64,000 nt of DNA, from NCBI GenBank assembly GCA_964446235.1, contig CAYUNW010000004.1, positions 141-64,140 on the forward strand, written 5' to 3'. Source of the DNA: an uncultured Gammaproteobacteria bacterium (GTDB lineage Bacteria > Patescibacteriota > Microgenomatia > 2-02-FULL-39-11). A model generated the notes under the pieces. That model saw only the letters and a list, made by a program, of their open reading frames with translations. It was not told the origin of the DNA and did no database searches. Positions 1 through 63,210 of the stretch are shown here, piece by piece (the stretch's first letter is position 1; each line of letters starts with the position of its first letter). A program made the position numbers and the translations under genes.

Positions 1-1026
1 GGTATCGTTGCTGATAAACATTCGACAGGAGGTTTAGCGGGTACTAGAACTACAATGATTTTAGTTCCGATAATTGCTGCTGCAGGTTATAAAATCCCTA
101 AAAATTCATCCAGAGCGATTACAACACCGGCAGGCACAGCTGATACTATGGAAGTATTAGCCCCTGTAACATTATCTCCAAACCAAATAGAAAAAATTGT
201 CGATAAAATCGGAGGTTGTATAGTTTGGGGAGGACATCTAGGACTAGCCCCGGCCGATGATATTATTATACAGGTTGAAGAACCTTTAGCGTTTGAATCA
301 TTTGATAAAATAATAATTTCAATTATGGCAAAAAAAATCGCATCTGGCGCTACACACTTAGTTATAGATATTCCCGTTGGAAGTACTCTTAAAATTAGAC
401 ATTTTAAGGATGCAGAAATTATTAAGAAAAAATTTTCATTTTTAGCAAAAAAATTTAAAATCAAAGCAGATTTTGATATTAATCAAGCGCTTGAACCCGC
501 AGGTCATAGCGTAGGACCTGCCTTAGAAGCCATAGATGTTTTGAAAGTATTAGAAGGAAGACCCGATAGGCCATTCATGCTTGAGGCAAAAGCGCTTAGA
601 CTGGCCGGTAAATTACTCGATCTTTGTTTATCCGAAGATAATAAAAAGAACAAAATAAATGGTGAAGAATTGGCAAAAGAAATTCTATATAGCGGCAAAG
701 CTCATAATAAAATGAAAGAAATTATTAAAGCTCAAGGTGGTAACCATGGCATTGAAGTAAGTGATATTAAATTAGGTCAATATAAATTTGAAATTCCTTG
801 TAAAAAAAGCGGTACAATAACATCCTTCAATAATAAAGACTTAACAATTATTGCGAGAATTTTAGGTTGTCCAACTGATAAAAAAGCCGGAATATATTTA
901 GAAAGACGTGTAGATGAACATATTGATAAAGGAGACATATTATGTGTTTTATATTCATCAGATAAGTGGCGACTTGAAGAAGCTAAAGAATCCTTAATTC
1001 ACGCACCAATTTATAAAATTGAATAG
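1..1026 (+). CDS. deoA: AMP phosphorylase / thymidine phosphorylase family protein (5' end cut by window edge)
   Basis: Frame 1 is open from base 1 (GIVADKHSTGGLAGTRTT...), so the DKHSTGG phosphate-loop motif of the nucleoside phosphorylase family lies before the first Met of the listed ORF 55..1026. TPAGTADTMEVL and the C-terminal alpha/beta domain follow. The AMP-specific call rests on co-occurrence with RuBisCO and R15P isomerase at 49.6-51.8 kb. Confidence 0.8.
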   Translation, partial: GIVADKHSTGGLAGTRTTMILVPIIAAAGYKIPKNSSRAITTPAGTADTMEVLAPVTLSPNQIEKIVDKIGGCIVWGGHLGLAPADDIIIQVEEPLAFESFDKIIISIMAKKIASGATHLVIDIPVGSTLKIRHFKDAEIIKKKFSFLAKKFKIKADFDINQALEPAGHSVGPALEAIDVLKVLEGRPDRPFMLEAKALRLAGKLLDLCLSEDNKKNKINGEELAKEILYSGKAHNKMKEIIKAQGGNHGIEVSDIKLGQYKFEIPCKKSGTITSFNNKDLTIIARILGCPTDKKAGIYLERRVDEHIDKGDILCVLYSSDKWRLEEAKESLIHAPIYKIE

Positions 1027-14292: not shown

Positions 14293-15387
14293 TTAATTCA
14301 GGCTACAATTTGAATAGATGCTACATTTTATATATTCATGTATTTGAGAAAAATCCTTTGAAATCGGTATCAAAACCCACTGACCGTCATATTCCTCAGT
14401 ATTTGGATGAATTAGTAATCCTCCATCTTGCATCTCATTTTTTACATCTGTAAGATTTACGGTTTTGATGTTATTTTCATTTAATCCATAAAGATATTTA
14501 CCTAAAATTAATAGTTCAGTTAAATTTAAATCAGTCTTTATGTATTCTTTTCCAATCATGTATAAAGGTATCAATTTTTTTACTTTTTGAACCAACGATA
14601 TTTTATTAAATTTATTTTTCAAAGCTTTTATGACCTGTTGTTGTCTTATACTTCTAGCAAAATCAGTGCCTTGATCATTATTTGCTTTTCTACTTCTAAC
14701 ATATTTCAATGCTGTTTTGCCGTCCATAAATTTCCATCCTTTTTCAAAAACAACAATTTCATACCTACATGCTAATGAAGCGCTTTCGTTACATATTTCG
14801 TTTTCTTTCCCAACAATTGGATATTTATCATCTATAAATCCTTCTTCTATAAAAACATCAACGCCCCCAAACAAATCAATTATTTTTTCAAAAGCGGTAA
14901 AATCCATTAATATAGAATACGGAATAGGTTGTCCTACAACTTCTTCTACAGTCGATTTGGCCATTATTAATCCCCCGTTTTCCTTTTTTTTCTCACCGTA
15001 ATAGTACGCTGTGTTTATCTTTGCTTTTAAACTGGGTATCCATAAATCCCTTGGGATTGAAGTTAAATAAGCTTTTTTATTTTCTAGATCGAAATTTAAA
15101 TAAATTATTGTATCGGTCAAATCAGCTCCATCTGAATTATCCCCAGAAATCCCAAGAAGTATTATATTTACTTTGTTATCGTTGGTTTTAATAATTGATT
15201 TATTGTCTTTTAAAATTAACGTCTTTAATAAATTAAAGTTTATTCCATTATTACCTAAAGTGTTTATGAAAGGTAATAAATAACTATAAAAAAATACTAT
15301 AAAAAAAACCAGAGAAATAACTGGAAGTAGATAGATTAATGGTTTACGAAATTTAATAAATTTACGGTTAATGTTTCTTAATCGCAT
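14293..15387 (-). CDS. LytR-CpsA-Psr (LCP) family cell-wall glycopolymer ligase
   Basis: N-terminal TM helix. LCP core NIILLGISGD...DLTDTIIYLNFDLENKKAYLTSIPRDLWIP and ALKYVRSRK. Confidence 0.8.
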   Translation of the reverse strand: MRLRNINRKFIKFRKPLIYLLPVISLVFFIVFFYSYLLPFINTLGNNGINFNLLKTLILKDNKSIIKTNDNKVNIILLGISGDNSDGADLTDTIIYLNFDLENKKAYLTSIPRDLWIPSLKAKINTAYYYGEKKKENGGLIMAKSTVEEVVGQPIPYSILMDFTAFEKIIDLFGGVDVFIEEGFIDDKYPIVGKENEICNESASLACRYEIVVFEKGWKFMDGKTALKYVRSRKANNDQGTDFARSIRQQQVIKALKNKFNKISLVQKVKKLIPLYMIGKEYIKTDLNLTELLILGKYLYGLNENNIKTVNLTDVKNEMQDGGLLIHPNTEEYDGQWVLIPISKDFSQIHEYIKCSIYSNCSLN

Positions 15388-16063
15388 TTAGAATATTTAT
15401 AATCAAATCCCAAAAAGATAACACTTCCAAACTTGCACCACCAGGTAAAACACCATCGATTGACTTATTGTTAATGTAATCAGCCACATTGTCCTTATTC
15501 ACGCTTCCGCCATATATTCCAAGTTGATCTTTTTCAGTTTTAATTTCTGATAATATTTTTGCGGCATTTTCAGGTAACTCAGCTTCTCCACTACCTATCG
15601 CCCAAACAGGTTCATAAGCGATAACTGAAACTCCTTCAGGAACAAAATCATTTTTTCCTGATATGCAGTAAACGGGTGTTAATCCATATTTAATTGCCTG
15701 TATTGTTTTTTTATTAAGTATTTCATTATCTTCACGAAAATATTTCCTTCTTTCTGAATGTCCTATAAGAACAAATTTTACATAATCGACCACTTGAGAA
15801 GCAGAAACTTCACCCGTGTAAGCACCCTGTTCATATGGAGATAAATTTTGAACTCCTAACTTTAATGGCAACTCGTTTTTTCTAATAAATTCCGACATTA
15901 TTTCAAGGTGTATGTAAGAGGGGCAAATTACAATCTCTAATTCATTGAATGTATTTTTACTTTTTTGCGAAATAATATTTTTAAAATCATTTAACCATTT
16001 CTTAACATCACTAATATTTTTATTACTTTTCCAATTACCAATAATAATTTTCTTTTTTGTCAT
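15368..16063 (-). CDS. tpiA: triose-phosphate isomerase
   Basis: IIGNWKSNK, IGHSERR and AYEPVWAIGSG. The ATG at 16063 (MTKKKIIIGNWK) is preferred over the listed TTG at 16075. Confidence 0.92.
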   Translation of the reverse strand: MTKKKIIIGNWKSNKNISDVKKWLNDFKNIISQKSKNTFNELEIVICPSYIHLEIMSEFIRKNELPLKLGVQNLSPYEQGAYTGEVSASQVVDYVKFVLIGHSERRKYFREDNEILNKKTIQAIKYGLTPVYCISGKNDFVPEGVSVIAYEPVWAIGSGEAELPENAAKILSEIKTEKDQLGIYGGSVNKDNVADYINNKSIDGVLPGGASLEVLSFWDLIINILNAIKKH

Positions 16064-16081
16064 AACTAGTAACAATTAAAC

Positions 16082-22687: not shown

Positions 22688-25666
22688 TCATTGCCATGCT
22701 TTACATATCATTCTATAATCACAAAAATCGCATAAATTGCTGACTTTTGGTTCAAAACTACTATTTTCAATTTCTTTAGCGGTTTTTATGATTTTTTCCT
22801 TTGCACTTTGTAAATCCTGATCTGTTCTTGTGCTTGAAATTTTCTCGAATGTCTCAAAAAAATAAAAAGAAAGCACTACTTCACTTGATTTTTTATTATA
22901 AATACCAGAATCAGTTGCGGCAAGTGCATAAACAGTCATCTGTAAATTTTCTCTGATTTCTTTTTCCTTTGGCTTTTTTCCTGTTTTATAGTCAATTATT
23001 TCTATTCTTCCTTCTTGAAGATTATCAACTCTATCAATTTTACCTCCTAATTTAAGATTACTGTTTAATGAGATTTTGAATACCTGTTCTAAACTTAAGG
23101 GTTTTTGCCGAGGATCATATACTTTTTCATAAAACCCTTTCAGCATTTCTCTCCCTCTCTGTTTCATTTTTTTCTCATAGGCTCTCGAACCATAACCAAC
23201 TGGAGTCCATACTTTGTCAAGAATAGCCAATAAATCTTTAAAATTCAAATTTTCATTTGCCAAGCGTTTTTCGTAAAATTTTTGTAAAGCCTCATGCATC
23301 GAACTGCCAAATGAACCAGCCGCTGAAGGCATCACTGGAATTTTCAATATATAACGGTATTTATATTGGAGAGGACAGGTTAAAAAAGTATCTATTTGTG
23401 AATAAGATAAATAACTAAGTTTTGTTTTTGCAGAATAATTTTCCGCTTCTTTCTCTTTTTTCCAGTTAAAAAAAGACAGTTGTCCGGTTTCTTTATTCGT
23501 TTTTTTAAGGATTCTTTCAATACCATCACCTAAGGTTTCATATAAAAAAGGAGATGGTCTCCGTTCCCGTTTGGCCTGACCGTAATATGCTGAAGCGCTG
23601 AATATCAGCTTATCTCTAGCACGTGTCATAGCAACATAAAATAATCTTCTTTCTTCTTCCAAATGATAATCCCCTTCCGGCAGTATTTCTTTAATCAAAT
23701 CATCAGGAATTGGTATCTGCTCCTTTCTTTCATATGTGGGAAAACGGCCTTGAGTTAAATTCACTATAAATACTACTTTGAATTCCAGCCCCTTAGCAGA
23801 ATGTATTGTAAGGATATTTACCGCATTATTCTCTGTCCAATCAATATTTGTGACCAACGGGCTTTCTCCTAACTCCATAGCTGTCTCTATCCATTCAACC
23901 GTTCTATTGACTGAAGCATCTTCATTTTCGAATTCAAAATTTTTCAATTTATCAAAAAATTTTGAAATATTTATTACTTCCTTTTCTTTTTTAAGACTAT
24001 CAATATCAGTGAATTGTTTTAACATTCCTGTTTTCTCCAGAAATGAATATATTATTTGACCGGCTGTTTCTGTTTTAACTTGTAACAAATGATGTTTTAA
24101 AATTTGCATAATATTGAAAAGTTTTTCTTTTGTTTTTTTATCAATGCTAGGAATTAACTGAAAATAATTCTTATCATTGCTCCAATGACTTTGATCTTTT
24201 GTATATTCTGCAATAATTACTTCTATTGTTTCAAAAAGTGATAATCCGGTTTTTCGAGCAAAAGATAAAATAAATGCAATATCCCGTGGTGAAATTTCAA
24301 AAATAGGCATACTTAATACTCTATACATAACAACTGAATCGCTTGGGTTATTTAATAATTTCAAATAGGCAATTAAGTCTCTTACTTCGTTTTGACGGAA
24401 AAGCTGACCCGGTCCTAAAAACTGATAAGGAATACCTAATCTAGAAAAAGCTTTAATAAAACTGTCTGCATGATTATTTGCTCGAACTAATACAGCAATA
24501 TCTTTCCAATAATATTTACTTAGTTGATCGGATTTTTGATCGATTATTTGTTTAATTTTTTTAGCTACAGCATCTGCTTCATCTTCAGCTCTTTGGGAAT
24601 ATAAAAACTCAATTTTCTCACCATCAATATTTCTCACACTTTCCAATTTTTTGTTTATATCTTCTTTAACTTCAAGTCTATCAGGATTATTTGACTGAAT
24701 CATTTTATATGAGGCATCCAAAATATTTTTACTTGATCGATAATTCTTTGATAAAACTATCACTTTCGCCTGAGGAAAATATTTTTTGAACTGTAAAATG
24801 TTTGATATTGCCGCACCTCTCCAACGATAAATAGCCTGATCATCATCACCAACAACAGTAATATTTTTATGATTTTCAGATAGTATAACGGCTAACTGAT
24901 TCTGGGCAAAGTTTGTATCCTGAAATTCATCAATAAGTATATATTTAAATTTTTCTTGATAATTTTTAAGAATATTTTTCCGTTTTCTAAATAATTTTAA
25001 AGTATAAAAAATCAAATCACTGAAATCCAAAACACCATTTTTAATTTTTAACTCCTCATACTTCGAATATGCATAGGCAAGCTCTAAGTATTTTTCTGAA
25101 TCAATGATTTCAGCTTCACTAATCTTATTGTTTTTTCTATTTTTTTCAGCCCAAATAATATAATCTTTTGGCGTAACATCTTCATCCTTAAGCCTAGAAA
25201 AATGATTTGCTAAACCGTTTAGAAATTTTTTTGGATTACCAAGCGGACGAAAATATTTCAAATCGAAGTTAAACAAATTATCCCTTAGAAATATTATGGT
25301 ATCCGCATTTGTATGAAGTTTGAAATCAGAAGTAATTCCTATTTGAATTGCTTCATCTTTAAGCACTCGTTCACCAAAAGCATGAAAAGTCATTACCCAC
25401 ATCTCTCTATATCCAATAGGTAATGCCTGATCTAATCGTTCTTCCATCTCATGAGCAGCTTTTTCAGTAAACGTTAATGCAAGAATTTCTTCAGGTTTAA
25501 TCTTTTGCTCTGTAATCAACCACTTGATTTTTTCAGTTATAACTGTAGTCTTACCCGTACCTGCTCCGGCAATAATCAGAAGCGGACCATTATTATAAGT
25601 AACTGCATTAAGTTGTTGTTTGTTTAATTTTTTTTCAGAAATATTATTCTCTTTAAAAATCATCAA
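22688..25666 (-). CDS. UvrD-type helicase fused to a C-terminal Cas4/AddB-type PD-(D/E)XK iron-sulfur nuclease
   Basis: N-terminal AGAGTGKT, IDEFQDTN, TIHSAKGLEF and YVAMTRAR. C-terminal LSYSQIDTFLTCPLQYKY, IEIIDYKTGK, QMTVYAL and CDFCDYRMIC (CX2CX5C). Confidence 0.8.
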   Translation of the reverse strand: MMIFKENNISEKKLNKQQLNAVTYNNGPLLIIAGAGTGKTTVITEKIKWLITEQKIKPEEILALTFTEKAAHEMEERLDQALPIGYREMWVMTFHAFGERVLKDEAIQIGITSDFKLHTNADTIIFLRDNLFNFDLKYFRPLGNPKKFLNGLANHFSRLKDEDVTPKDYIIWAEKNRKNNKISEAEIIDSEKYLELAYAYSKYEELKIKNGVLDFSDLIFYTLKLFRKRKNILKNYQEKFKYILIDEFQDTNFAQNQLAVILSENHKNITVVGDDDQAIYRWRGAAISNILQFKKYFPQAKVIVLSKNYRSSKNILDASYKMIQSNNPDRLEVKEDINKKLESVRNIDGEKIEFLYSQRAEDEADAVAKKIKQIIDQKSDQLSKYYWKDIAVLVRANNHADSFIKAFSRLGIPYQFLGPGQLFRQNEVRDLIAYLKLLNNPSDSVVMYRVLSMPIFEISPRDIAFILSFARKTGLSLFETIEVIIAEYTKDQSHWSNDKNYFQLIPSIDKKTKEKLFNIMQILKHHLLQVKTETAGQIIYSFLEKTGMLKQFTDIDSLKKEKEVINISKFFDKLKNFEFENEDASVNRTVEWIETAMELGESPLVTNIDWTENNAVNILTIHSAKGLEFKVVFIVNLTQGRFPTYERKEQIPIPDDLIKEILPEGDYHLEEERRLFYVAMTRARDKLIFSASAYYGQAKRERRPSPFLYETLGDGIERILKKTNKETGQLSFFNWKKEKEAENYSAKTKLSYLSYSQIDTFLTCPLQYKYRYILKIPVMPSAAGSFGSSMHEALQKFYEKRLANENLNFKDLLAILDKVWTPVGYGSRAYEKKMKQRGREMLKGFYEKVYDPRQKPLSLEQVFKISLNSNLKLGGKIDRVDNLQEGRIEIIDYKTGKKPKEKEIRENLQMTVYALAATDSGIYNKKSSEVVLSFYFFETFEKISSTRTDQDLQSAKEKIIKTAKEIENSSFEPKVSNLCDFCDYRMICKAWQ

Positions 25667-48600: not shown

Positions 48601-48661
48601 TTGACATTAAAACGTTCAATTCTTATTCTGTTTATATCAGATAATTTTTGATTATAAAATT

Positions 48662-49648
48662 ATGCAAGACTTTTTATCTAAACTCCAAAATAAGAAAGTT
48701 CCATTCATTATGGCTATCGCTGGAGACAGCGGAAGTGGAAAAACAACTTATTCTTCAGGAATTACCAAATTATTCGGTCATGACTTAGTTAAAACAATAA
48801 CTATGGATGGTTACCATAAAGAAAATAGAAAACAAAGAGAAATATCAAAAAAATTACCGCTTGATCCTCTTTCAAATAATTTGGACTTATTCAAAACTCA
48901 CCTTTCCCAACTGAAAAAAGGTGAAGTAATCAATTTACCGATTTATAATCATCATAGCGGCGACTTTGAAAAACCTGTCGAATTCAAACCTACTCCGATA
49001 ATTATCATCGAGGGTCTGCATAGCCTATATCCTGAATTTCTTGAATACATAGATTTTTCCATATACGTGGATCCGGATCGGGATATCAAATGGGAATGGA
49101 AATATGAAAGAGATGTCAATATTCGTCATCATGACGAAAAACCTCTTATAGAAGAAATGCTTGCTCGTGAAGCGGCTTATAAAAGATGGATAGATTTCCA
49201 AAAAACAAATGCGAATGTTGTTATAAAAATATCCCAAAGCCGAATTAGACAATTAGCCAAATATGAATTTATCGGACAACTTCCGAAACATACATATTAT
49301 GTAACAATGATATTGGATCAGGCAAAAATAACCTTACAACCTTTCACCTTATCTTTTGATATATCTCTTAAAGCAGATGAAAGCAATTTGCCTTTTAGTA
49401 TTGCCTGCGTACCCAGTATATATTGGGGTAGAAACACGACCGTAATCCATATAGACGGATTAATTCCTCAAAAAACCGTCTGTGAATTTGAAAATAATAT
49501 TAAAAAGACAGTTGGTGTAAATCCAGACACTGCATTTTCTCAAAATCCTGAATGTTTTGGAGATATGAACAATAAATATAACGGAACACAACTGGCACAA
49601 ATTATTATCCTTTACAGATTCTTAGAACAATTACAACACAACATCTGA
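48662..49648 (+). CDS. prk: phosphoribulokinase (class II, PRK/uridine-kinase fold)
   Basis: P-loop IAGDSGSGKTT. The stretch MDGYHKENRKQRE...LDPLSNNLDL...PIYNHHSGDFEKP...IIIEGLHSLYPE...DFSIYVDPDRDIKWEWKYERD parallels cyanobacterial/archaeal PRK. The PRK-specific C-terminal extension ends YNGTQLAQIIILYRFLEQL. At 328 aa it is too long for Udk. Confidence 0.75.
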   Translation: MQDFLSKLQNKKVPFIMAIAGDSGSGKTTYSSGITKLFGHDLVKTITMDGYHKENRKQREISKKLPLDPLSNNLDLFKTHLSQLKKGEVINLPIYNHHSGDFEKPVEFKPTPIIIIEGLHSLYPEFLEYIDFSIYVDPDRDIKWEWKYERDVNIRHHDEKPLIEEMLAREAAYKRWIDFQKTNANVVIKISQSRIRQLAKYEFIGQLPKHTYYVTMILDQAKITLQPFTLSFDISLKADESNLPFSIACVPSIYWGRNTTVIHIDGLIPQKTVCEFENNIKKTVGVNPDTAFSQNPECFGDMNNKYNGTQLAQIIILYRFLEQLQHNI

Positions 49649-49651
49649 ATA

Positions 49652-50902
49652 TTATTTATCATTCCCCCATTTTTCCAAAGCTTTAGCTAAATTTTGATCA
49701 TTTTTGGAATAATCTTCTAGCGTTTTTCCATCCATTGTTGCTTTCATGGCAGAAGCCACCGCTTGCGCACCCTTTAATGAACCGTCAGGATGCCCATGAA
49801 TACCTCCACCGAAATTAAACAACATATCCTTACCTAATATATTGTATAAATCCGGTATAAGACCTGGATATAAACCTCCAGAGGCAACAGGTAAGACTGT
49901 TTTAAGACCATACCATTCCGATCGTAAGAAATTATTCATATTCTGAACCTCTTCTTTACCCCCTTCCATTTTTCCGACTACAGTACCAGTATGTAAAGAA
50001 TCAACTCCTGCAAGTCTTGATAATTTTGCGATAAAAAGCATAGTCATTCCATACTGCTTGGATCTGGTAAATGCTGCATGCATAGCCCGATGAGCATGTA
50101 TCATTTTATGGTAGTTCTTATTTCGTATACCTTGAACAGCAGCAAATCCTGCTGTTAAAACATCTATCATATGGCAATTTCCGCCATTTTGCACTACTGC
50201 GTCTGCTCTATTTACCATTTCTTCATAAGACGCTGTGATATTGAATGCATAAATTTTTTCACCACCTTTACCTAAGTACCCTTTTTCTTTCATTCTCCTT
50301 GTCATTTCCGTCACTCTTTCATAAAACGGATTGAAATCCTGGCTGGTCAGATTTTCGTCGTCTTTGACTAAATCCAAACCCCCATCATATACCGCCATTG
50401 CTGCATCGCTATGATCATTTGTGGACAATCCAAGCTTAGGTTTGATAATCGAACCCATCAATGGTCTATTACTAATACCGGTTATTTCTCTTATACCATC
50501 TATTCCCAATGCCGGACCGGGAAATGAAACAACATACTTTTCCGGAAATTCTATATCAATTATTCGAAGAGTTGCTACTTCAGCTAAACCAAATATATTT
50601 CCGGCAATTGATGATAATAATTGTGGTATGCTGCCGGGTTCGAAAAGTTCTAATGTATATGCTACCTTCAATAAACCACTCGATTCATCCATTTCAATGA
50701 CTCTACCGTGTAAATGATCCCACAATGTCTTCTCGTTTAATCCGATATCTGTCCATGTCCCTACGGACGATTCTGCCGCAACGCCTCCGGCTGTCCTATC
50801 AAAAGGCTGACCTTCTGATTTTAGTTGAAAAGTTACCGTTATATAATCTTCTTTATTTATATTTTCACCTATTGATAAATAATTTTTATATGGATTACTC
50901 AT
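49652..50902 (-). CDS. rbcL: ribulose-1,5-bisphosphate carboxylase/oxygenase large subunit, form III type (416 aa)
   Basis: The catalytic set is retained: GSIIKPKLGL, LVKDDE, HAHRAMHAA, HTGTVVGKMEG, PVASGG and FGGGIHGHP. There is no small-subunit gene. It follows an R15P isomerase gene. Confidence 0.92.
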   Translation of the reverse strand: MSNPYKNYLSIGENINKEDYITVTFQLKSEGQPFDRTAGGVAAESSVGTWTDIGLNEKTLWDHLHGRVIEMDESSGLLKVAYTLELFEPGSIPQLLSSIAGNIFGLAEVATLRIIDIEFPEKYVVSFPGPALGIDGIREITGISNRPLMGSIIKPKLGLSTNDHSDAAMAVYDGGLDLVKDDENLTSQDFNPFYERVTEMTRRMKEKGYLGKGGEKIYAFNITASYEEMVNRADAVVQNGGNCHMIDVLTAGFAAVQGIRNKNYHKMIHAHRAMHAAFTRSKQYGMTMLFIAKLSRLAGVDSLHTGTVVGKMEGGKEEVQNMNNFLRSEWYGLKTVLPVASGGLYPGLIPDLYNILGKDMLFNFGGGIHGHPDGSLKGAQAVASAMKATMDGKTLEDYSKNDQNLAKALEKWGNDK

Positions 50903-50912
50903 AATTATTTTT

Positions 50913-51812
50913 TTAAATTTTAATAAAATTATAATTTAATAAAGCTTTTTGTTTAACCTGATTATTTTCCAATATTCCTTCTTCGCACACTATTTTTATA
51001 ATTTCAGAATATGAAACGAAGTCAAAAGCCGGACTGTATATTTTAAGTTTAGATGTAGCCTCTGGCCACACCTCTTCACTTTTTCTTTTTTCTATCAATT
51101 CATAAGAAAAATCACGAGGATCATATTTCAACAAAATACTCATTGAATATAAAGGGGTTTTATACTCTTTACATGCTAAAGCTATTCCCATACTGCCAAT
51201 TTTATTTACAAAACCAGTTTCTGTTAATAAATCCGCTCCGATAAATACAGCATCGATTTTATTATAAACACCGCTTATTATACTGGTTGCCGCATCATCA
51301 ATTATTAAAGTTACATCTTCAATTCCTCCTTCTAAGAGTTCTTTCACGGTCACTCTACCCTGAAACAATGGACGCGTTTCAGTAGCAATAACCGAAAATT
51401 TCTTTCCTTGTTTTTTTGCTTCTAAAAACATTGAGGTTACCGTTGAAGAATGACAATGAGTTAGATAGCAACCGCCATCTTTTATCATAGACATGCCAAC
51501 TTTTGACATTCTCATTTTTGCAGATGCTATAAAATTTTTATATTCTTCAATTTTTTTCACATATTCGCCTCTTGAATGTAAATTGGAATTAAAAACATAT
51601 CTTACGGCGTTCTGAGCTAGAGGCTCTGTTGGTCTTGCATATGCTAAATCATCGGCAATATCTTTCAATTTTTTATGAAGCTGATCCAAAGAAAGATTTT
51701 CAAACATCTTCAAACCTTCAATCACTCCATCCAAAGTAGCTAAAGCCACATTTGTAGCGCCTTGAATTCTTAATTGAATTATGTCTTCTTTAAGTTGTTT
51801 AATTCTGTCCAT
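50913..51812 (-). CDS. ribose-1,5-bisphosphate isomerase (eIF-2B alpha/beta/delta-like, e2b2)
   Basis: eIF-2B-related fold (THCHSSTVTSMF, VIATETRPLFQGR, VFIGADLLTETGFVNKIGS). Sits directly upstream of RuBisCO. Confidence 0.8.
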   Translation of the reverse strand: MDRIKQLKEDIIQLRIQGATNVALATLDGVIEGLKMFENLSLDQLHKKLKDIADDLAYARPTEPLAQNAVRYVFNSNLHSRGEYVKKIEEYKNFIASAKMRMSKVGMSMIKDGGCYLTHCHSSTVTSMFLEAKKQGKKFSVIATETRPLFQGRVTVKELLEGGIEDVTLIIDDAATSIISGVYNKIDAVFIGADLLTETGFVNKIGSMGIALACKEYKTPLYSMSILLKYDPRDFSYELIEKRKSEEVWPEATSKLKIYSPAFDFVSYSEIIKIVCEEGILENNQVKQKALLNYNFIKI

Positions 51813-51821
51813 GATTAAAAT

Positions 51822-51830
51822 ATTTTATCA
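51822..51830 (-). promoter_or_regulatory. extended -10 promoter (TGaTAAAAT) of the e2b2-rbcL operon
   Basis: The minus strand reads TGATAAAAT (51830..51822). The ATG at 51812 lies 9 nt downstream, with no Shine-Dalgarno. Confidence 0.45.
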
Positions 51831-52297: not shown

Positions 52298-52960
52298 CTA
52301 TTTATAATAATTTTTTACTTGATTAAACCACCCGCAAAATTCACAATCTGTAGAATTTGCCGGTATATCATTTTCAAGTATTTTAACAGCTTTTTCAATC
52401 CTGGATGTTACTTTTTCCGGATAAGCTGTGATCTTTTCTATATGGATAATCATTGGAAACCCTTCATGTAGTCTATCGGATAAATCCGGATAGAAAAAAA
52501 TTAAATAGCCGAATTTTTTTGTGGATTTTTTGTTTTTTTCAAGCAGAAAAACATATTCATCTATCTGATTTTGATACGCATCAAGCACCGGTTTAGTTCT
52601 GGGATCCGAAGAAGAGGTTTTGAAATCAACTGGAATATAATCTCCATCACCATCAACAATACATTCATCTAGTTTTCCTAAAAAACCATATTTATCGTTG
52701 AATTGATAAAAATATTTCTCTTTAAAAGGACTTTCCAGATAACCGTTTATTTTATTCTTTATAACTCCGGGTAACTCTCCTTTATTACGGTAAAAATCAA
52801 AATATTTTTTTATAACAATGTCAAATCTATTGGCAAGCCGTGATTGAATTCCCTCAGGTAATTTAATTTTTTGTTTATATGAAAGCCAAAAACATCTTTG
52901 ACATCTGTTAATACTCTCAATTGCTGTATGAGAAAGCCAAATTAGTTTATTTTGAATCAT
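52298..52960 (-). CDS. PD-(D/E)XK nuclease, Cas4/RecB-like, four-Cys
   Basis: N-terminal LSHTAIESINRCQRCFW. Core GKLDE...IPVDFKT. DAYQNQIDEY (QxxxY). C-terminal CEFCGW. Confidence 0.6.
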   Translation of the reverse strand: MIQNKLIWLSHTAIESINRCQRCFWLSYKQKIKLPEGIQSRLANRFDIVIKKYFDFYRNKGELPGVIKNKINGYLESPFKEKYFYQFNDKYGFLGKLDECIVDGDGDYIPVDFKTSSSDPRTKPVLDAYQNQIDEYVFLLEKNKKSTKKFGYLIFFYPDLSDRLHEGFPMIIHIEKITAYPEKVTSRIEKAVKILENDIPANSTDCEFCGWFNQVKNYYK

Positions 52961-53306: not shown

Positions 53307-53642
53307 TTAATATCTATTTTGTCTACCGCCACCCCCAAAACCTCTTTGGCCTCCGCGACTAAACCTACCACCGCCTCTTCCGTTTGAAAAAGTAGGTTTG
53401 GGTAAAGCTTCCTTAACGACGATTTTTCTACCTTCCAATTCGGTACCGTTCAATTTCTCAATAGCTTTCAAAGCCTCTTCATCAGTCGTCATTTCCACAA
53501 ATCCAAAACCCCTGCTTCTACCACTGTCTCTGTCTTTTATGACATTGGCTGATACAACTTGACCGAATTGAACAAACAATTGTCCTAAATCGTCATCAGT
53601 AACTGAAAAAGGGAGGCTCCCTACAAAAATATTTTTTGCCAT
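53307..53642 (-). CDS. RRM-type RNA-binding protein with RGG tail
   Basis: RNP2 IFVGSL, RNP1 RGFGFVEM, and a C-terminal GRGGGRFSRGGQRGFGGGGR. AAAGGAG Shine-Dalgarno. Confidence 0.88.
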   Translation of the reverse strand: MAKNIFVGSLPFSVTDDDLGQLFVQFGQVVSANVIKDRDSGRSRGFGFVEMTTDEEALKAIEKLNGTELEGRKIVVKEALPKPTFSNGRGGGRFSRGGQRGFGGGGRQNRY

Positions 53643-53910: not shown

Positions 53911-54738
53911 TTATAATATATAAATATCCTGTTTGTATGAATTCGTATAAATATATTCTGCTTTTCCCTGAAGAATTTTTTCATATGGTTCACAAAACAT
54001 ACAACCGTTTGGTTTTTTGCATACAAATCTATTTAATTTACGGGCTAAAACTATCTTTTTGGCTATTTCCAGAATTCTATCTTGGGCATTCTGATATGAT
54101 GGTATTTCCTGATCAATTGGTTCGTCATCCCTTTGAAGATACCAGTATGAAATCCCTGACACTTTTTTTGCCTGACAGTTGGTAACAAGTAAGTAATATA
54201 TCGGCAACTGCAACGAATCTGGATCTTCATCATATTTACCGGTTTTGAAATCTATGATCCTGACACTGTCATCATTTTCAACGTATTCCAACCAGTCAAC
54301 TTTACCGCATAATATGATGTTTTCTTCCTCATCCAACCAAAAATATGGTAAATTCTGACGTATCTTTATCGCTTTGTTTTTTAAAGGCCCGGGATTCTCT
54401 TCTATTCTTTCAAGCATTTTGATACCCTGGTTTTTATAATCAATTTCTTCTTTTTCTGATTTAAATCCGCCTCTTTTCCCTGATATATTGGTCCAGAATT
54501 TATTATAAATATCTTTCAAGGAAACAAGCGTTCTTTTCTCAACAGGTAGGAAAGATAATGAATCAATTACGTCATGAACTATCTGACCTAATGCTAATGG
54601 TGGTTGAATAAGATTAATTTTATGTCCATTGTCCGTATTTCTGTATATATTTTTCAAAAAATATGATCTGGGACACTTAAGATAATCAGTAATTGAAGAG
54701 TAAGACACCCATACGGCGGAATATTTATCTTTGACCAT
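53911..54738 (-). CDS. PD-(D/E)XK nuclease, Cas4/AddB-like with Cys cluster
   Basis: VSYSSITDYLKCPRSYF, GKVDW...IIDFKTGK, LQLPIYYL and a C-terminal C-x6-C-x2-C (CKKPNGCMFC). Confidence 0.6.
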   Translation of the reverse strand: MVKDKYSAVWVSYSSITDYLKCPRSYFLKNIYRNTDNGHKINLIQPPLALGQIVHDVIDSLSFLPVEKRTLVSLKDIYNKFWTNISGKRGGFKSEKEEIDYKNQGIKMLERIEENPGPLKNKAIKIRQNLPYFWLDEEENIILCGKVDWLEYVENDDSVRIIDFKTGKYDEDPDSLQLPIYYLLVTNCQAKKVSGISYWYLQRDDEPIDQEIPSYQNAQDRILEIAKKIVLARKLNRFVCKKPNGCMFCEPYEKILQGKAEYIYTNSYKQDIYIL

Positions 54739-57907: not shown

Positions 57908-59218
57908 ATGAAAAGTAAACATTTCGTACTTTTAGGTCATCTTGACCACGGCAAATCTACACTAATCGGCAGGCTACTTTGGGATTTGGGAAAAATCGAT
58001 AAAAATACCAAAAGTTATCTCATGGAAATCGGTTCAAAAAACAACCGCCATTTTGCCTATGTATTGGATTTCAAACAGGAAGAAAGAACAAGAGGAATAA
58101 CAATAGATGTCGGACATAACAAGCTTATAATTGATGGGTACTCTTTTACATTTTCAGATGCTCCAGGACACCAAGTATTCCGAAACAAAATAGATTCTGC
58201 AATAAAAGAATCTAATGCGGCTATTATCTGTTTGGCTGCAGACGATAAAATTACCGATGAACTCAAAAAAAGCATCTTATATGCCCATAAGAATAAAATT
58301 ACTGATTTTATTGTTTGTATAACTAAGATGGATTTAGTCAAATATAAAAATGTAATCTTTGAAAAATTATCAAGTCAAATATTACCTTTGCTAAAAAAAA
58401 GTTCATCACTGCAATTTATACCTACTTCTGCCCTAAAAGGCGACAATATAACAAAATCGTCAAAAAAAATGCCTTGGTATCAAGGTGTAACACTAATAGA
58501 AAGTTTTAAAAATGCCAATACAAAAGAAAATTCCGTCAATGATTTGGTTAGACAATCCAAAGAAATTTTTAAAAAAGCAGAAAAAACTTTCCGTCATCCA
58601 GTGATGTTATGGGCAGGTGGTAAAGACTCAACTGCTATGCTGGCTATAGCCAAAGAATTATATCCGAAAAAACTTCCATTCCCTCTACTTTTTATCGATA
58701 CAACTTATAAATTCAGCGAAACATACGATTTTATCAACTTACTCCAAAAAAAATGGAAATTAAATCTTTTAAGAATCACAAACAAAGAAGCATTGGAAAA
58801 AGGCGTCAATCCCTGGTCTGTGAACCACTTTACCTATTGCCATGAATTAAAAACAAAACCTTTAAAAAAAACAATAAATGATGAAGGGTATGACGGCGCT
58901 TATGTTGCTATCCGCTGGGATGAACATGGAATCAGAGGCAAAGAACAGTATTTTTCCAAAAGAACTGACCCGCCACATTACCGTATCCACCCGATGCTAC
59001 ATTGGTCGGAAAGTGAAATATGGCAATATATTAAATCCGAAAAGATACCGTATAATTCCCTATACGATAAAGAGGAGCATAACGGACTAGTCTACAGAAG
59101 TATTGGATGTTGGCCTTTTACCAAACCTATCCCAAAAGAAGGAGCAGATGAACGTTCAGGTAGAGAAGTTGATAAAGAGCGTCTGATGGAAAGTTTACGT
59201 TCTCTTGGATATATGTGA
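57908..59218 (+). CDS. single-chain sulfate adenylyltransferase-like fusion: CysN GTPase domain (N-terminal) + CysD PAPS-reductase-fold domain (C-terminal)
   Basis: N-terminal roughly 200 aa: GHLDHGKSTLIGRLL, ERTRGITID, DAPGH, TKMD and PTSALKGDNITKSSKKMPWYQG (CysN/EF-1alpha-like G domain, with no domains II/III). C-terminus: PVMLWAGGKDSTAMLAIAKELYPKKLPFPLLFIDT, RSIGCWPFT and ERSGREVDKERLMESLRSLGYM (CysD). Confidence 0.7.
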   Translation: MKSKHFVLLGHLDHGKSTLIGRLLWDLGKIDKNTKSYLMEIGSKNNRHFAYVLDFKQEERTRGITIDVGHNKLIIDGYSFTFSDAPGHQVFRNKIDSAIKESNAAIICLAADDKITDELKKSILYAHKNKITDFIVCITKMDLVKYKNVIFEKLSSQILPLLKKSSSLQFIPTSALKGDNITKSSKKMPWYQGVTLIESFKNANTKENSVNDLVRQSKEIFKKAEKTFRHPVMLWAGGKDSTAMLAIAKELYPKKLPFPLLFIDTTYKFSETYDFINLLQKKWKLNLLRITNKEALEKGVNPWSVNHFTYCHELKTKPLKKTINDEGYDGAYVAIRWDEHGIRGKEQYFSKRTDPPHYRIHPMLHWSESEIWQYIKSEKIPYNSLYDKEEHNGLVYRSIGCWPFTKPIPKEGADERSGREVDKERLMESLRSLGYM

Positions 59219-59221
59219 ATT

Positions 59222-61216
59222 ATGTTTATACTTCTTTCGAAAAATTTTTTTCAGAATAAAATTTTATTAAAAATTACCTTAATTTCAGCTCTCCTTTCCG
59301 GTTTTTTGTTTGCGATTTACGATCTAAGCTTTTTTATCTTATCCAATAATATTCCGCTTTTTAATTTTTGGGATTTTATCAAATTAACCTCTTTACCATT
59401 TGGATTTTACATTTTAATCGCTCTTATTATTTATCCTTTATTTTCGATATTTAATCACTTCATGTTCCAACTTTCCGGGTTGGAAATGTCCCCAAAAAAA
59501 GAAGCGTCTTTATTTTTTGCATTCTCAGTTTTTCTGACAACTGCTAAGATTATAGACAGTGCTATACAACAAGGGGCAAATACACGGAAAATCAGCTTAC
59601 CAATTGCTATTGTTATCGCATCTATAATTGCTTTTTTTTGTTATCAGAAATTAAGGAAATTTTTTCAAAAAAGAAGCACAACGGCACTAGGAAAATTAAT
59701 ATTCTCCTTTTCCGGATTGTTATTCACAGTATGGCTTTTTATGGTATGGTTTTTATATAAAGCCGATTATCCTCCAATACAAAAATCAGAACTCGTTGAT
59801 AAAATAAATATCGAGCAAAAACCGAATATCATTTTGATTATCTTGGATACTGTGAGAGCGGATCATTTATCCTCATATGGTTACAATAGACAAACAACTC
59901 CTAATATTGACACTTTTTCCGAACAAGGAGTTTTGTATACAAATGCAATTTCACAAGCTCCTTGGACATTACCCTCACATGCTTCCTTACTTACCGGTCT
60001 ATACCCCAGACAACATGGAGCAGATGGAAGATGGTTATGGCTTGATAATAATTTTTCAACATTACCGGAAATATTAAGTGACAACGGATACTATACAATA
60101 GGAATATCCAATAATCACAATTTTCATGTAAATACGAATTTACATCAGGGATTTGACAAATTTATATACACAAAAAGTTATCATTATAATTCATCAAATT
60201 TCTTTCTGACAAAAGTATTAAAAGACTTTTACGCACTTAGCAAATCGGAAAAAATCAAAAATCTTATCTCTGACATTACTTATTTCTTTTCCAGTAAAAA
60301 TATAAACAAGGACTACGGAGCTTTGTTTACAAATAAAGTTGCCAAAGATTATTTAAACTATTTAAATAACTCCAAAGTCCCCGTTTTTTTAATGATGAAT
60401 TATATGGAAGCCCACACTCCTCTTGGTGAAACTGCTGATAAAACTCTTTATCTTAAAGATTTAAATGTCTCACTCCGCGAAGCAAAAAGGTTAAGTGTAA
60501 AAGTTGACAGTGATTTAATAAAAACTTTCACTGGTGAGTGGAAACTTACTGAAAGAGAAATACAGATTATACATGCACTTTATGACGCTGATTTACACTA
60601 TTTGGACGAAAGAATTGGTGAGTTAATTAACTATTTAAAAGACATGAATTTGTTCGATAATTCCATGATCATAATTACTTCAGACCACGGGGAAAATTTA
60701 GGCGACCACGGTATCCTTGCTCATGAATATGATATACATCGATCGTTAGTACATGTCCCCTTAATAATTTATTATCCAAAATTTTTTCAAGCAAATTCTG
60801 TTATTGACAATATTACAGAAACAAAAGATATCTTTCCTACGGTCCTGGACATAGCTGGAATACAAAACCTAGAAAATGGTGAACTTTTAAAATATAGTCT
60901 CAGAAACAACTTCAAAAGAAATTTTGTTTTGTCTGAAAATGCAATCGGTGACCTATTCAGTACCGTAAAAAATACATTGGTAAAAAATCCCACCTTGGAC
61001 CAAAGAGTGATTACCGGAGAATGGCTAAATATTCAAAATAATGAATTAGAGTTTATCTCTAATATTTTGGGTGATAAACTTTATGACATAACTACCGATC
61101 CAAACGAATTAAATAATGTTGTTGATATCTATCCGCAAAAAACAAAAGAAATGAAAGAAAAATTAAATCAACGTCTAAGAGAAATAGGTTCATATTGGTT
61201 TGACTATAATCATTAA
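59222..61216 (+). CDS. membrane-anchored sulfatase-fold (alkaline phosphatase superfamily) protein, Thr-type active site, paralog A
   Basis: About 5 N-terminal TM helices. ILDTVRADH metal site. APWTLPSHASLLTGLYP stands in place of C/S-x-P-x-R. ITSDHGENLGDHG. The start lies 3 nt after the cysN-cysD fusion stop. Confidence 0.7.
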   Translation: MFILLSKNFFQNKILLKITLISALLSGFLFAIYDLSFFILSNNIPLFNFWDFIKLTSLPFGFYILIALIIYPLFSIFNHFMFQLSGLEMSPKKEASLFFAFSVFLTTAKIIDSAIQQGANTRKISLPIAIVIASIIAFFCYQKLRKFFQKRSTTALGKLIFSFSGLLFTVWLFMVWFLYKADYPPIQKSELVDKINIEQKPNIILIILDTVRADHLSSYGYNRQTTPNIDTFSEQGVLYTNAISQAPWTLPSHASLLTGLYPRQHGADGRWLWLDNNFSTLPEILSDNGYYTIGISNNHNFHVNTNLHQGFDKFIYTKSYHYNSSNFFLTKVLKDFYALSKSEKIKNLISDITYFFSSKNINKDYGALFTNKVAKDYLNYLNNSKVPVFLMMNYMEAHTPLGETADKTLYLKDLNVSLREAKRLSVKVDSDLIKTFTGEWKLTEREIQIIHALYDADLHYLDERIGELINYLKDMNLFDNSMIIITSDHGENLGDHGILAHEYDIHRSLVHVPLIIYYPKFFQANSVIDNITETKDIFPTVLDIAGIQNLENGELLKYSLRNNFKRNFVLSENAIGDLFSTVKNTLVKNPTLDQRVITGEWLNIQNNELEFISNILGDKLYDITTDPNELNNVVDIYPQKTKEMKEKLNQRLREIGSYWFDYNH

Positions 61217-61245
61217 TCATTCACTAATATGCATATATTAAAATA

Positions 61246-63210
61246 ATGAGAAGTTTAAAAATAAAAAAAATTTTATTGGTTACTTCATTAATCTCTGCTT
61301 TAACCGCCGGTAGTATTTTTGCATATTATGATATCAGTTTTTATATCATCACTTCCAAAACTTTCTTTTTTGGCTTCTATGAATATTTTATTACTGTATT
61401 TATTCCGCTTATGTCATATGTAATTCTTGCTTTAGTTTTCTTTCCATTTATGTCTTTGGTCTTTTTGGTTTTTTTAAAAATTAGTGGATATAAATTTTCC
61501 GAAATCAAAATATCAATCCTATTTTTTTCAATTAGTATATTGTTTCTTTCTTTAAAAATTCTTGACAGTATTATCTGGCAAAGTACGTTCTCCAGAATTT
61601 ATAGTATTCCGATAGCCATTATGCTGGCATCTATCATTGCTCATTATTTTTATTATTTGACCAATAACTTAACGGAAAAATTAGGATTTTTTAAGTCTAT
61701 AAAAATATTTCTTATTTTATATCTTTTGTTTTTCATTCTAATAAACTCGTTTTTGTTTTATAAATATAAAGCCGCGTATCCAACGCCTGATATCGACTTT
61801 ATCAATAATCAAAATAATAATCATTCTATAAAACCAAACATTATACTGCTTATTCTTGATACGGCCAGAACAGATCATTTTCCAGTTTACGGATACGAAA
61901 GAAATACAACACCAAATATCGATGCTTTTGCTAAAAAAAGTGCGCTTTTTCAAAATGCGGTATCACAAGCTCCTTGGACTTTACCCTCACACGCTTCGAT
62001 GCTAACCGGACTCTATCCAAGACAACATGGGGCAGACGGCAGATGGGAATGGTTGGACTATAATTTTGATACTTTAGCAGAAATATTGAAAAAAAATTTT
62101 TATTATACTGTCGCAATTTCAAATAATGAATATTTCTCCGAGAAAACAAATTTAAATCAGGGTTTTGATAAATTTATTTTTGTCAAAAACTATTCACAGA
62201 CAAAAGCAAGTCTTTTTTTGGTCAAACTTCTTACTGATATAAAATCAATACTTGAAGAAGATTTCCAAAAAAATCTGATTTCTGATATTGCCAATTTCAT
62301 TTCAGCAAAAGGTTTTAGAAAAGATTATAGTGCCTCTTTCACAAATGAAATTGCCTATTCATACCTAGACGAATTTAGTAGAACCTCTACACCATTTTTT
62401 TTAATGATTAACTATATGGAAACCCACAATCCATTGGGCGATACACAAAATAAAGATTTATACCTTAAAGAAATAAATGCTTCTTTATATGAAGCTTTAA
62501 GGGTAAGTGATCTGGCAAACTCAGGAAGAATTCCGGCGGTTTTTGAGGAATGGAAAATATCTGACAGGGAAAAGCATATCATGAATGCATTATACGATGG
62601 AGATTTGCATTATTTAGATAAAAAAATCGGCGAATTTATAAGCTTTTTAGAAAAAACTAATTTATTAAATAATTCTTTGGTGATAATCACCTCTGATCAT
62701 GGAGAAAACTTAGGTGATCATGGAATGCTTGCTCATTTATATGACATCAGAAGACCATTAATACACGTCCCGCTTTTATTATACTATCCGAAAATTTTTT
62801 CAGAGGGATCAATTATTGAAAAAACTGTAGAAACCAGAGATATCTTCCCGACAATACTTGAAATAGCAGGTATATCTTATGAAAAATATATAGACCCTAA
62901 ACCTTACAGTTTAAATTACCGGAATCGCCCTGATATTGCCTTTTCTGAATATATTGAAGGCGGTGATTTTGATTTTATACATCCATTGCTTTCAAATAAT
63001 CCAAATAGAAATCAAATGATTATAAAAGGAGAGTGGTTAAATTTCCATGATGGCGAATATGAATATATCTCGCATTATAATCAGGAATTTCTTTATAATA
63101 TACATAAAGATCAAAATGAGGATAATAATTTGGCAAATCAGGAAATTCAAAAAAAATTAATAATAAAAACAAAATTGGACCAATATTTAGATAATATTGT
63201 CACTTATTGA
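61246..63210 (+). CDS. membrane-anchored sulfatase-fold protein, Thr-type active site, paralog B (tandem duplicate)
   Basis: Same architecture and motifs as paralog A: ILDTARTDH, APWTLPSHASMLTGLYPRQHGADGRW and ITSDHGENLGDHG. Confidence 0.7.
   Translation: MRSLKIKKILLVTSLISALTAGSIFAYYDISFYIITSKTFFFGFYEYFITVFIPLMSYVILALVFFPFMSLVFLVFLKISGYKFSEIKISILFFSISILFLSLKILDSIIWQSTFSRIYSIPIAIMLASIIAHYFYYLTNNLTEKLGFFKSIKIFLILYLLFFILINSFLFYKYKAAYPTPDIDFINNQNNNHSIKPNIILLILDTARTDHFPVYGYERNTTPNIDAFAKKSALFQNAVSQAPWTLPSHASMLTGLYPRQHGADGRWEWLDYNFDTLAEILKKNFYYTVAISNNEYFSEKTNLNQGFDKFIFVKNYSQTKASLFLVKLLTDIKSILEEDFQKNLISDIANFISAKGFRKDYSASFTNEIAYSYLDEFSRTSTPFFLMINYMETHNPLGDTQNKDLYLKEINASLYEALRVSDLANSGRIPAVFEEWKISDREKHIMNALYDGDLHYLDKKIGEFISFLEKTNLLNNSLVIITSDHGENLGDHGMLAHLYDIRRPLIHVPLLLYYPKIFSEGSIIEKTVETRDIFPTILEIAGISYEKYIDPKPYSLNYRNRPDIAFSEYIEGGDFDFIHPLLSNNPNRNQMIIKGEWLNFHDGEYEYISHYNQEFLYNIHKDQNEDNNLANQEIQKKLIIKTKLDQYLDNIVTY

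Follow-up and report, generated by a model that had tools for sequence, protein, structure and literature searches.

The 64-kb stretch of DNA analyzed in this study (contig CAYUNW010000004.1; hereafter the window) contains adjacent genes for a predicted phosphoribulokinase (PRK), a form III-c RuBisCO (ribulose-bisphosphate carboxylase/oxygenase) large subunit (RbcL), and an e2b2-type ribose-1,5-bisphosphate (R15P) isomerase (hereafter e2b2), and the 3′ part of a DeoA/AMP-phosphorylase-family gene is located at the start of the window (Table 1). Direct reading of the sequence showed that exactly 3 bp separate the convergent stop codons of the PRK gene and rbcL. The sequence at this point is ATC TGA / ATA / TTA TTT ATC, with the PRK stop codon TGA at 49646–49648. 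A 10-bp gap separates rbcL from e2b2, which precedes it on the same strand. The open reading frames (ORFs) and the junction reading thus confirmed the three genes and the 3-bp tail-to-tail layout of PRK and RuBisCO that had been described in an initial annotation of this DNA, and the annotation at JGI already names the three proteins as PRK, RbcL, and e2b2. The window lies within the 108.9-kb contig Ga0394875_0000224 of JGI metagenome 3300037501, and the identical PRK/RbcL/e2b2 locus was found in three independent assemblies (JGI 3300037501, JGI 3300043177, and Logan SRR12686701). The arrangement is therefore not an assembly artifact, and a chimeric assembly was rejected. No terminator-like site was found at the 3-bp junction, where there is no room for an intergenic terminator, and a bidirectional terminator at this position was also rejected. 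Because the two convergent genes have no terminator between them, their transcripts may run into one another. A promoter-like match precedes the PRK start codon by 33 bp, although such sigma-70-like matches are frequent in the AT-rich window (31 observed versus 20 expected in the consensus scan). No Rfam match to a structured RNA or riboswitch was obtained at gathering thresholds near these genes or anywhere else in the window.

Table 1. Features of the PRK/RuBisCO locus and related genes in the window
Feature	Position	Strand	Basis
DeoA/AMP-phosphorylase-family gene, 3′ two-thirds, cut by the window start	1..1026	+	PF00591, PF07831
Triose-phosphate isomerase (TIM)	15368..16075	-	PF00121, 188 bits
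Sigma-70-like promoter match, TTGACA-17-TATTCT	48601..48629	+	Consensus scan, 10/12 matches; weak
Predicted PRK, type II, archaeal/CPR-type clade, 328 aa	48662..49648	+	PF00485, NF005655, fold
Spacer ATA, 3 bp, separating the stop codons of the convergent PRK and RbcL genes	49649..49651		Direct sequence reading
RuBisCO large subunit (RbcL), assigned to form III-c, 416 aa	49652..50902	-	PF02788, PF00016, homologs
Predicted e2b2-type R15P isomerase, 299 aa	50913..51812	-	PF01008, PDB relatives, context

The 328-aa protein, initially described as a bona fide-looking PRK, is a PRK as judged from its sequence and modeled fold. It matched PF00485 with 122 bits and the phosphoribulokinase model NF005655 with 274.1 bits (cutoff, 236), the latter over residues 10 to 326. 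By contrast, the udk models gave 96 to 101 bits (cutoffs, 180–220) and the panK model gave 54 bits (cutoff, 235), scores under half of the respective cutoffs, and the class I PRK model NF011997 gave 30 bits (cutoff, 362). The closest relative of known structure was the PRK from Methanospirillum hungatei (MhPRK; Protein Data Bank (PDB) code 5B3F), with 171 bits and approximately 29% sequence identity, followed by cyanobacterial PRKs (144 bits) and uridine kinases (62 bits). The residues reported for MhPRK (K30, S31, T32, D52, H55, R59, R62, Y98, H100, K151, R154, and D155; Kono et al. 2017, PMC5241800) were mapped through the alignment with 5B3F and a position check, and the P-loop, catalytic, ribulose 5-phosphate (Ru5P)-binding, and ATP-binding residues were all found to be kept (K27, T28, T29, D49, H52, R56, R59, Y95, H97, K147, R150, and D151). 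These residues are invariant across 28 members of the same clade except for T28/T29, of which T28 is nearly invariant. E117 of the window PRK is conserved as well. An AlphaFold2 model of the single chain had a pLDDT of 87.7 and a pTM of 0.87, and the top 19 PDB entries retrieved with it by Foldseek were all PRKs, aligned over approximately 320 to 366 columns. The model superposed on 5B3F over its full length with TM scores of 0.81 to 0.87, including the PRK-specific C-terminal dimerization domain, which is predicted to fold as in MhPRK, whereas uridine kinases aligned only with the N-terminal ∼190 residues (TMq ∼0.45). Models and fold thus group the protein with PRKs, and its identification as a uridine or pantothenate kinase was rejected on the basis of the curated cutoffs, the residues, and the fold.

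The label of class II that had been given to this PRK is appropriate in the broad sense of the dimeric type II enzymes, which comprise the archaeal, cyanobacterial, and plant PRKs (Gurrieri et al., 10.1101/422709), but the protein falls outside the classical clade of cyanobacterial and plant PRKs and has no regulatory Cys pair. The positions equivalent to this pair in plant-type PRKs (C16/C55 of CrPRK) are occupied by S25 and T47, and the sole cysteines are C249, C274, and C298; the sequence of the predicted enzyme is in this respect outside the redox-regulated photosynthetic subclade. In a neighbor-joining (NJ) tree, the window PRK was included in a clade of sequences from the candidate phyla radiation (CPR), atypical cyanobacteria, and a few gammaproteobacteria (94% bootstrap), separate from MhPRK and the Synechococcus PRK. 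Two gammaproteobacterial homologs of the same broad clade, from contigs with a GC content of 0.66 to 0.68 (L018, 8001–12163, labeled Ectothiorhodospiraceae; L057, 4501–9082), are 40 to 42% identical to the window PRK. In both, a RuBisCO-like gene lies approximately 2.3 to 2.7 kb downstream of the PRK gene; its product is 27 to 28% identical to the window RbcL and is possibly a RuBisCO-like protein (RLP).

An alternative explanation is that the 328-aa protein, though a kinase of the PRK family, acts physiologically on another substrate, such as a nucleoside, ribose-1-phosphate, or a different sugar phosphate, and that RuBisCO is fed via DeoA and e2b2 only. PF00485 spans both PRKs and uridine kinases, and cyanobacteria possessing a classical PRK keep a homolog of the window PRK inside a hydrogenase (hox) operon, which suggests a specialized role. 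Ru5P kinase activity has been demonstrated for MhPRK, in the wider archaeal clade (Kono et al. 2017, PMC5241800), whereas no assay of the CPR and atypical-cyanobacterial clade was found in the searched literature. We nevertheless consider this alternative improbable. The match is full length and above the PRK cutoff, all the Ru5P(-phosphate)-binding residues of MhPRK and RsPRK are kept (H52, R56, R59, Y95, H97, and K147), the C-terminal domain lies beyond residues ∼1 to 190 to which uridine kinases align, and the recurrent adjacency of PRK genes to genes for two forms of RuBisCO, described below, argues for ribulose 1,5-bisphosphate (RuBP) as the product.

The 416-aa protein contains the RuBisCO domains PF02788 and PF00016 and scored 442.9 bits against the large-subunit subfamily model NF003252 (cutoff, 438). 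The RLP and mtnW models reached only 214 to 262 bits against cutoffs of 409 to 514. The closest relatives of known structure were archaeal form III enzymes, namely, 2CWX from Pyrococcus horikoshii (350 bits), 6HUN (341 bits), and 1GEH from Thermococcus kodakarensis (311 bits), followed by form I-related (289 bits), form I (238 bits), and II/III (228 bits) enzymes. Alignment with the P. horikoshii and T. kodakarensis enzymes showed that the catalytic and RuBP-binding residues E44, T49, W50, N102, K154, K156, K180, D182, E183, H271, R272, H275, H304, K311, S341, G342, G343, G365, and G366 are kept, and we take these to correspond, in spinach numbering, to E60, T65, W66, N123, K175, K177, K201, D203, E204, H294, R295, H298, H327, K334, S379, G380, G381, G403, and G404, respectively. 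T173 is substituted by I (V in the archaeal enzymes) and L335 by M (also M in P. horikoshii). None of the checked catalytic residues was lost in these alignments, the catalytic motifs are intact, and the RLP models remained far below their cutoffs; the protein was accordingly rejected as an RLP, in agreement with the initial description of a RuBisCO with intact catalytic residues. The window RbcL showed 71% identity to an nr entry designated "RuBisCO long chain, Form III-c [uncultured bacterium]" (P0130), and the value for one RbcL from Gottesmanbacteria was 73%. By these similarities it belongs to form III-c, a placement made from identity to designated sequences and from the PDB ranking. Form IIIC is now a routinely recognized subclade (PMC13454268). 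No match to the small-subunit family was detected in family scans of the window ORFs.

The third protein of the locus matched PF01008 with 177 bits. Its closest PDB entries were the R15P isomerases from T. kodakarensis (3A11/3VM6) and P. horikoshii (5YFJ), with 105 to 110 bits, and lower scores were obtained for MtnA (78–84 bits) and for eIF2B subunits (<60 bits). Its THCHS and GAD motifs align exactly with those of the two archaeal enzymes; the Cys of the former and the Asp of the latter are, we presume, the catalytic residues of the T. kodakarensis enzyme, and both are shared by MtnA. The pairing of RuBisCO with an e2b2-type isomerase, proposed initially, is conserved: e2b2 directly precedes or overlaps rbcL in all the form III-c relatives examined (L020–L024), and the two are fused in a set of ∼700-aa homologs, a fusion also reported by Jaffe et al. 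(PMC6389311). The AMP phosphorylase-family gene noted earlier at the start of the window was recovered as well. It is in frame but truncated at its 5′ end, begins with GIVADKHSTGG, and lies within approximately 140 bp of the contig end. It scored 403 bits against NF003338, 392 bits against TIGR02645, and 370 bits against TIGR03327 (AMP_phos), the last match spanning profile positions 159 to 485 of 500; since the N-terminus is lost, these scores are not comparable with the cutoffs. The models for bacterial Y/T-phosphorylases gave only 110 to 177 bits, and the truncated sequence, which has the core of glycosyl-transferase family 3 and a PYNP_C domain, fits best in the archaeal thymidine/AMP phosphorylase group. 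The gene is located ∼47.6 kb from the e2b2-rbcL operon and ∼48.6 kb from rbcL itself.

The host was assigned from DnaK, the top named relatives of which (80–84% identity) are all from Candidatus Gottesmanbacteria, followed by Roizmanbacteria and other Microgenomates (77–79%). On this sequence evidence, the host is a member of Gottesmanbacteria (Microgenomates, CPR/Patescibacteria). Gottesmanbacteria with form III-c RuBisCO have been reported to encode PRK (Jaffe, Castelle, Dupont, and Banfield 2019, Mol Biol Evol 36:435; PMC6389311). In that study, PRK homologs were found in 31 genomes of Gottesmanbacteria and Peregrinibacteria and were nested among divergent PRKs from cyanobacteria and archaea; none of them had been assayed. 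Two roles were put forward, namely, a Calvin–Benson–Bassham (CBB)-like pathway without sedoheptulose-1,7-bisphosphatase (SBPase) or the supply of additional RuBP from Ru5P to the AMP pathway (PMC6389311). The initial annotation had likewise read the PRK as an extra element providing a second, Ru5P-dependent route to RuBP or a partial CBB-like module; the identity of the PRK holds, but the element is not new because it was published by Jaffe et al. The biology of e2b2, RbcL, and PRK is thus already known, and the window is a divergent example of the published system. It agrees with the Gottesmanbacteria system of Jaffe et al. in host phylum, RuBisCO form, PRK clade, linkage of e2b2 with RbcL, assignment of DeoA, e2b2, and RbcL to one pathway, and both functional hypotheses. 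It differs in that the lineage is divergent (PRK and RbcL are 54–57% and 73–76% identical, respectively, to their nearest relatives), in that the PRK gene abuts rbcL at a distance of 3 bp so that RuBisCO is flanked by both predicted suppliers of RuBP, and in that deoA is not clustered with e2b2-rbcL, whereas tight clustering with deoA has been described for most form III-c genomes (PMC6389311). The position of PRK relative to rbcL is not described in the main text of Jaffe et al. (PMC6389311). The additions made here, i.e., the compact trio, the recurrent convergence, and the hydrogenase linkage presented below, are small.

We surveyed the arrangement of these genes in 16 genome loci and 42 metagenome loci, together with several contig look-ups. 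Among the surveyed loci, the trio of e2b2-rbcL and PRK occurred only in the window and in its nearest relative, L020, whose RbcL and PRK are 76% and 55% identical to those of the window and whose PRK and rbcL genes are separated by 1 bp. The adjacency was absent from the form III-c loci L021–L024 and from the closest PRK relatives (L005, L027–L029, L069, and L070), as well as from L012, L015, L039–L041, and L047–L049, and it was therefore rejected as a general feature of Gottesmanbacteria. In 11 loci (L014, L016, L017, L019, L035–L037, L050, L055, L056, and L065), the gene for a member of a second PRK clade (∼45% identical to the window PRK; 75–93% bootstrap in the NJ tree) converges on that for a form III-like RbcL of 462 aa, and the stop codons often overlap; in a further locus, L011, the pair is head-to-head. 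The L036 RbcL is identical to an entry of Jaffe et al. deposited as "Form III-like," and that of L050 is from a metagenome-assembled genome (MAG) of Gottesmanbacteria. These pairs, the hosts of which include Gottesmanbacteria, Roizmanbacteria, and other Patescibacteria, share with the window the tail-to-tail layout and a PRK that passes NF005655, but they differ in that their RbcL is only 37% identical to that of the window, no e2b2 is adjacent, and their PRK belongs to the separate clade. Several MAGs with convergent pairs are labeled "uncultured Gammaproteobacteria," although their RbcL clusters with those of Patescibacteria, Roizmanbacteria, and Gottesmanbacteria; these labels are probably wrong.

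The pairing of PRK with two forms of RuBisCO argues for a nonrandom, functionally coupled linkage of the PRK gene and rbcL and against chance. The 3-bp adjacency could instead be a meaningless by-product of genome compaction or rearrangement, with both enzymes functional. The genes are convergent and hence not co-transcribed, the adjacency among form III-c loci is limited to the window and L020 (absent from L021–L024, L069, and L070), and intergenic spacers are short throughout the window. Against this explanation, the same convergent layout recurs in the separate PRK clade at 11 loci, indicating at least two independent origins or long retention, and a chance adjacency of two specified genes in a genome of ∼1000 genes would have a frequency of ∼0.2% per origin by our rough estimate. 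We therefore give the by-product explanation little weight. The backbone of the NJ tree of PRKs had bootstrap values of 2 to 54%, so the ancestry of the layout was unsupported either way; an in situ swap of one RuBisCO form for another beside a retained PRK is a possibility.

We consider that the locus probably represents the published set of form III-c RuBisCO plus PRK, in which RuBP would be supplied both by AMP salvage and by PRK to a heterotrophic, CO2-incorporating shunt. In this scheme, the DeoA-type phosphorylase would convert AMP and phosphate to adenine and R15P, and the e2b2-rbcL operon would encode the two steps that complete AMP/nucleoside (pentose-bisphosphate) salvage of the archaeal type: e2b2 would isomerize R15P to RuBP, and RuBisCO would convert RuBP and CO2 to two molecules of 3-phosphoglycerate (3-PGA). 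PRK would form RuBP from Ru5P and ATP, so that the same RuBisCO would be reached by a second route, from pentose phosphates. The 3-PGA would then enter ATP-yielding lower glycolysis and fermentation, so that, on balance, carbon from nucleotides and pentoses would reach 3-PGA with the NADH-producing glyceraldehyde-3-phosphate dehydrogenase (GAPDH) step bypassed, which would not amount to autotrophy. Compared with the non-oxidative pentose-phosphate plus GAPDH route, the PRK branch would yield 3-PGA without NADH, from which an obligate fermenter would benefit. This branch parallels engineered PRK-RuBisCO shunts. Engineering of this type is alluded to in PMC7895386. In this mechanism we infer the activities of the enzymes, the transcription of e2b2 together with rbcL, where the Ru5P comes from, and a physiological function in salvage or redox sparing. 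An ADP-forming acetyl-CoA synthetase-like gene with CoA_binding, Succ_CoA_lig, and ATP-grasp_5 domains is located on the parent contig approximately 8 kb past the window end (L068, 19985–21965), which is consistent with an acetate-forming fermentation; genes for RtcB, an HD-domain protein, and a GH125 glycosidase are found near it. The NiFe hydrogenase genes located beside e2b2-rbcL or PRK in relatives, described below, likewise lend the scheme indirect support as a fermentative context.

Several observations weigh against this interpretation. Neither the window nor the next ∼9 kb contains genes for ribose-5-phosphate isomerase (RPI), ribulose-5-phosphate 3-epimerase (RPE), transketolase, or the oxidative pentose-phosphate pathway. 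RbcL scored 462 bits against the TIGR03326 rubisco_III equivalog, which is under the cutoff of 497. The top NCBIfam model for e2b2 was TIGR00511 (ribulose_e2b2) with 168.7 bits, far below the cutoff of 314.1, and the eIF-2B_rel subfamily model gave 160.5 bits (cutoff, 185.85); these scores suggest that the protein belongs to a divergent CPR branch, and its predicted isomerase function is assigned largely from context. The literature search mentioned above yielded no assay for the PRK clade, the convergent orientation excludes PRK from the e2b2-rbcL transcription unit, and the PRK and rbcL genes are not adjacent in most PRK loci of Gottesmanbacteria and in the other form III-c loci examined, and therefore adjacency is not required for the system.

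A complete or near-complete cycle resembling the CBB or reductive hexulose-phosphate pathway, with autotrophic or mixotrophic CO2 fixation, is another explanation for the same genes. PRK and RuBisCO are the two signature enzymes of the CBB cycle, TIM is encoded in the window, several Gottesmanbacteria bins lack only SBPase and carry a bifunctional fructose-1,6-bisphosphate aldolase/phosphatase (FBA/FBPase) (PMC6389311), and the NiFe hydrogenases found beside RuBisCO or PRK in relatives could give reductant. However, TIM is the only other central-carbon enzyme encoded in the window and the only other CBB enzyme encoded in the window and its ∼9-kb flank; in addition to the pentose-phosphate genes listed above, genes for phosphoglycerate kinase (PGK), GAPDH, FBA/FBPase, Hps/Phi, and hydrogenases were absent from this region. 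The rbcL gene is operonic with that of a salvage-pathway isomerase, CPR genomes are small and inferred to be fermentative, and Jaffe et al. themselves regarded a functioning cycle as "uncertain" (PMC6389311). We thus regard a cycle of this kind as unlikely and favor the heterotrophic shunt.

Hydrogenase genes were found near these enzymes in some CPR relatives. In L023 (3341–7254) and L024 (2658–6571), e2b2-rbcL (form III-c) is immediately preceded, on the same strand, by genes for the small and large subunits of a NiFe hydrogenase, and in L011 (1440–8939) a 58%-identical hydrogenase pair is located ∼3.2 kb away from the form III-like rbcL and PRK genes that are arranged head-to-head. Cyanobacterial members of the PRK clade that are ∼51% identical to the window PRK are encoded inside an operon for a hox-type bidirectional NiFe hydrogenase in Aerosakkonema sp. 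BLCC-F183 (L006, 6560–10471) and in two Coleofasciculaceae MAGs (L007 and L008). The order, on one strand, is hoxU-like, hoxY-like (Oxidored_q6), the PRK homolog, and hoxH-like (NiFeSe_Hases), and the PRK homolog overlaps hoxH by 4 bp in L006; no description of a PRK homolog within hox operons was found in the searched literature. A tentative extension of the proposed shunt, which we put forward as possible but rather doubtful, is that PRK and form III RuBisCO constitute a selected, physically linked two-enzyme module of fermentative CPR bacteria that, along with NAD(P)-linked NiFe hydrogenases, serves to keep redox in balance. This idea draws on the recurrence of convergent PRK and rbcL genes with form III-c (the window and L020) and form III-like (11 loci) enzymes, on the hydrogenase genes upstream of e2b2-rbcL in L023 and L024 and near rbcL/PRK in L011, and on the position of the cyanobacterial PRKs between the hoxY- and hoxH-like genes in L006–L008. 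Such a module may be a natural counterpart of the engineered shunt.

Two characterized systems resemble the one predicted here. The AMP/pentose-bisphosphate pathway of T. kodakarensis, credited in later papers to Sato et al. 2007 and to Aono et al. 2015, uses the same gene set of a DeoA-type AMP phosphorylase, e2b2, and form III RuBisCO, and Thermococcus/Pyrococcus enzymes are the closest solved structures of the window RbcL and e2b2. By contrast, the host of the window is a bacterium (CPR), its RuBisCO is assigned to form III-c and lacks a segment of ∼14 residues found in the T. kodakarensis RuBisCO, and a PRK is additionally present. The reductive hexulose-phosphate pathway of methanogens (PMC5241800) is likewise non-photosynthetic and pairs a dimeric PRK of the archaeal type with a form III-type RuBisCO; among solved structures, MhPRK is nearest to the window PRK by both sequence and fold, with active-site residues in common despite the low overall identity. 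However, neither Hps/Phi nor other regeneration genes are present in the window, and its host is a fermentative CPR bacterium. Should both the PRK and the form III-c RuBisCO prove active, RuBisCO could be fed from nucleotides and pentose phosphates in small fermentative CPR bacteria, which could thereby add CO2 to organic carbon without autotrophy, a case already made by Jaffe et al. 2019. The locus also bears on how components of the Calvin cycle were assembled and exchanged among archaea, CPR bacteria, and cyanobacteria. Its compactness offers a convenient three-gene construct (e2b2-rbcL plus prk) for biochemistry but opens no new question by itself; the recurrent PRK/rbcL convergence and the hydrogenase linkage are the most promising leads.

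The impression that rbcL is more GC-rich than its neighbors was confirmed numerically (GC of 0.378, z = 1.9, a value exceeded by only one of the 58 ORFs, which average 0.313), but the lateral acquisition that had been read from it was not supported. Codon positions 1 and 2 account for most of the excess, whereas GC3 (0.276; rank 9/58, z = 1.3) and the codon-usage distance from the rest of the window (rank 37/58) are ordinary, and the composition of the PRK and e2b2 genes is also unremarkable. The composition of rbcL therefore gives no support for recent lateral transfer; the value fits a conserved Gly/Ala-rich enzyme in an AT-rich genome. The phylogenetic case for ancient transfer (Jaffe et al., PMC6389311) is unaffected by composition. 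The GC-richest ORF (0.414), which also has the most deviant codon usage, encodes an RRM_1 RNA-binding protein with a Gly/Arg-rich tail (53307–53642, minus strand), indicating that amino-acid composition drives the GC outliers here.

The remaining observations concern other genes in and around the window. A 98-aa ORF lies antisense within rbcL (50421–50717, plus strand); the public annotation has no gene at this place, and the ORF is almost certainly spurious. Genes for UvrD-type helicases and PD-(D/E)XK nucleases are unusually dense (16082–17950, 22688–25666, 52298–52960, and 53911–54738) and include one coding for a 992-aa fusion of helicase and nuclease, as well as two small PD-(D/E)XK genes just upstream of the e2b2-rbcL operon. 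Toward the end of the window, a CysN/PAPS-reductase-like gene (57908–59218) precedes two tandem sulfatase-family genes (664 and 654 aa) and then a phosphodiesterase-family gene, the latter group extending from 59222–63210 into L068.

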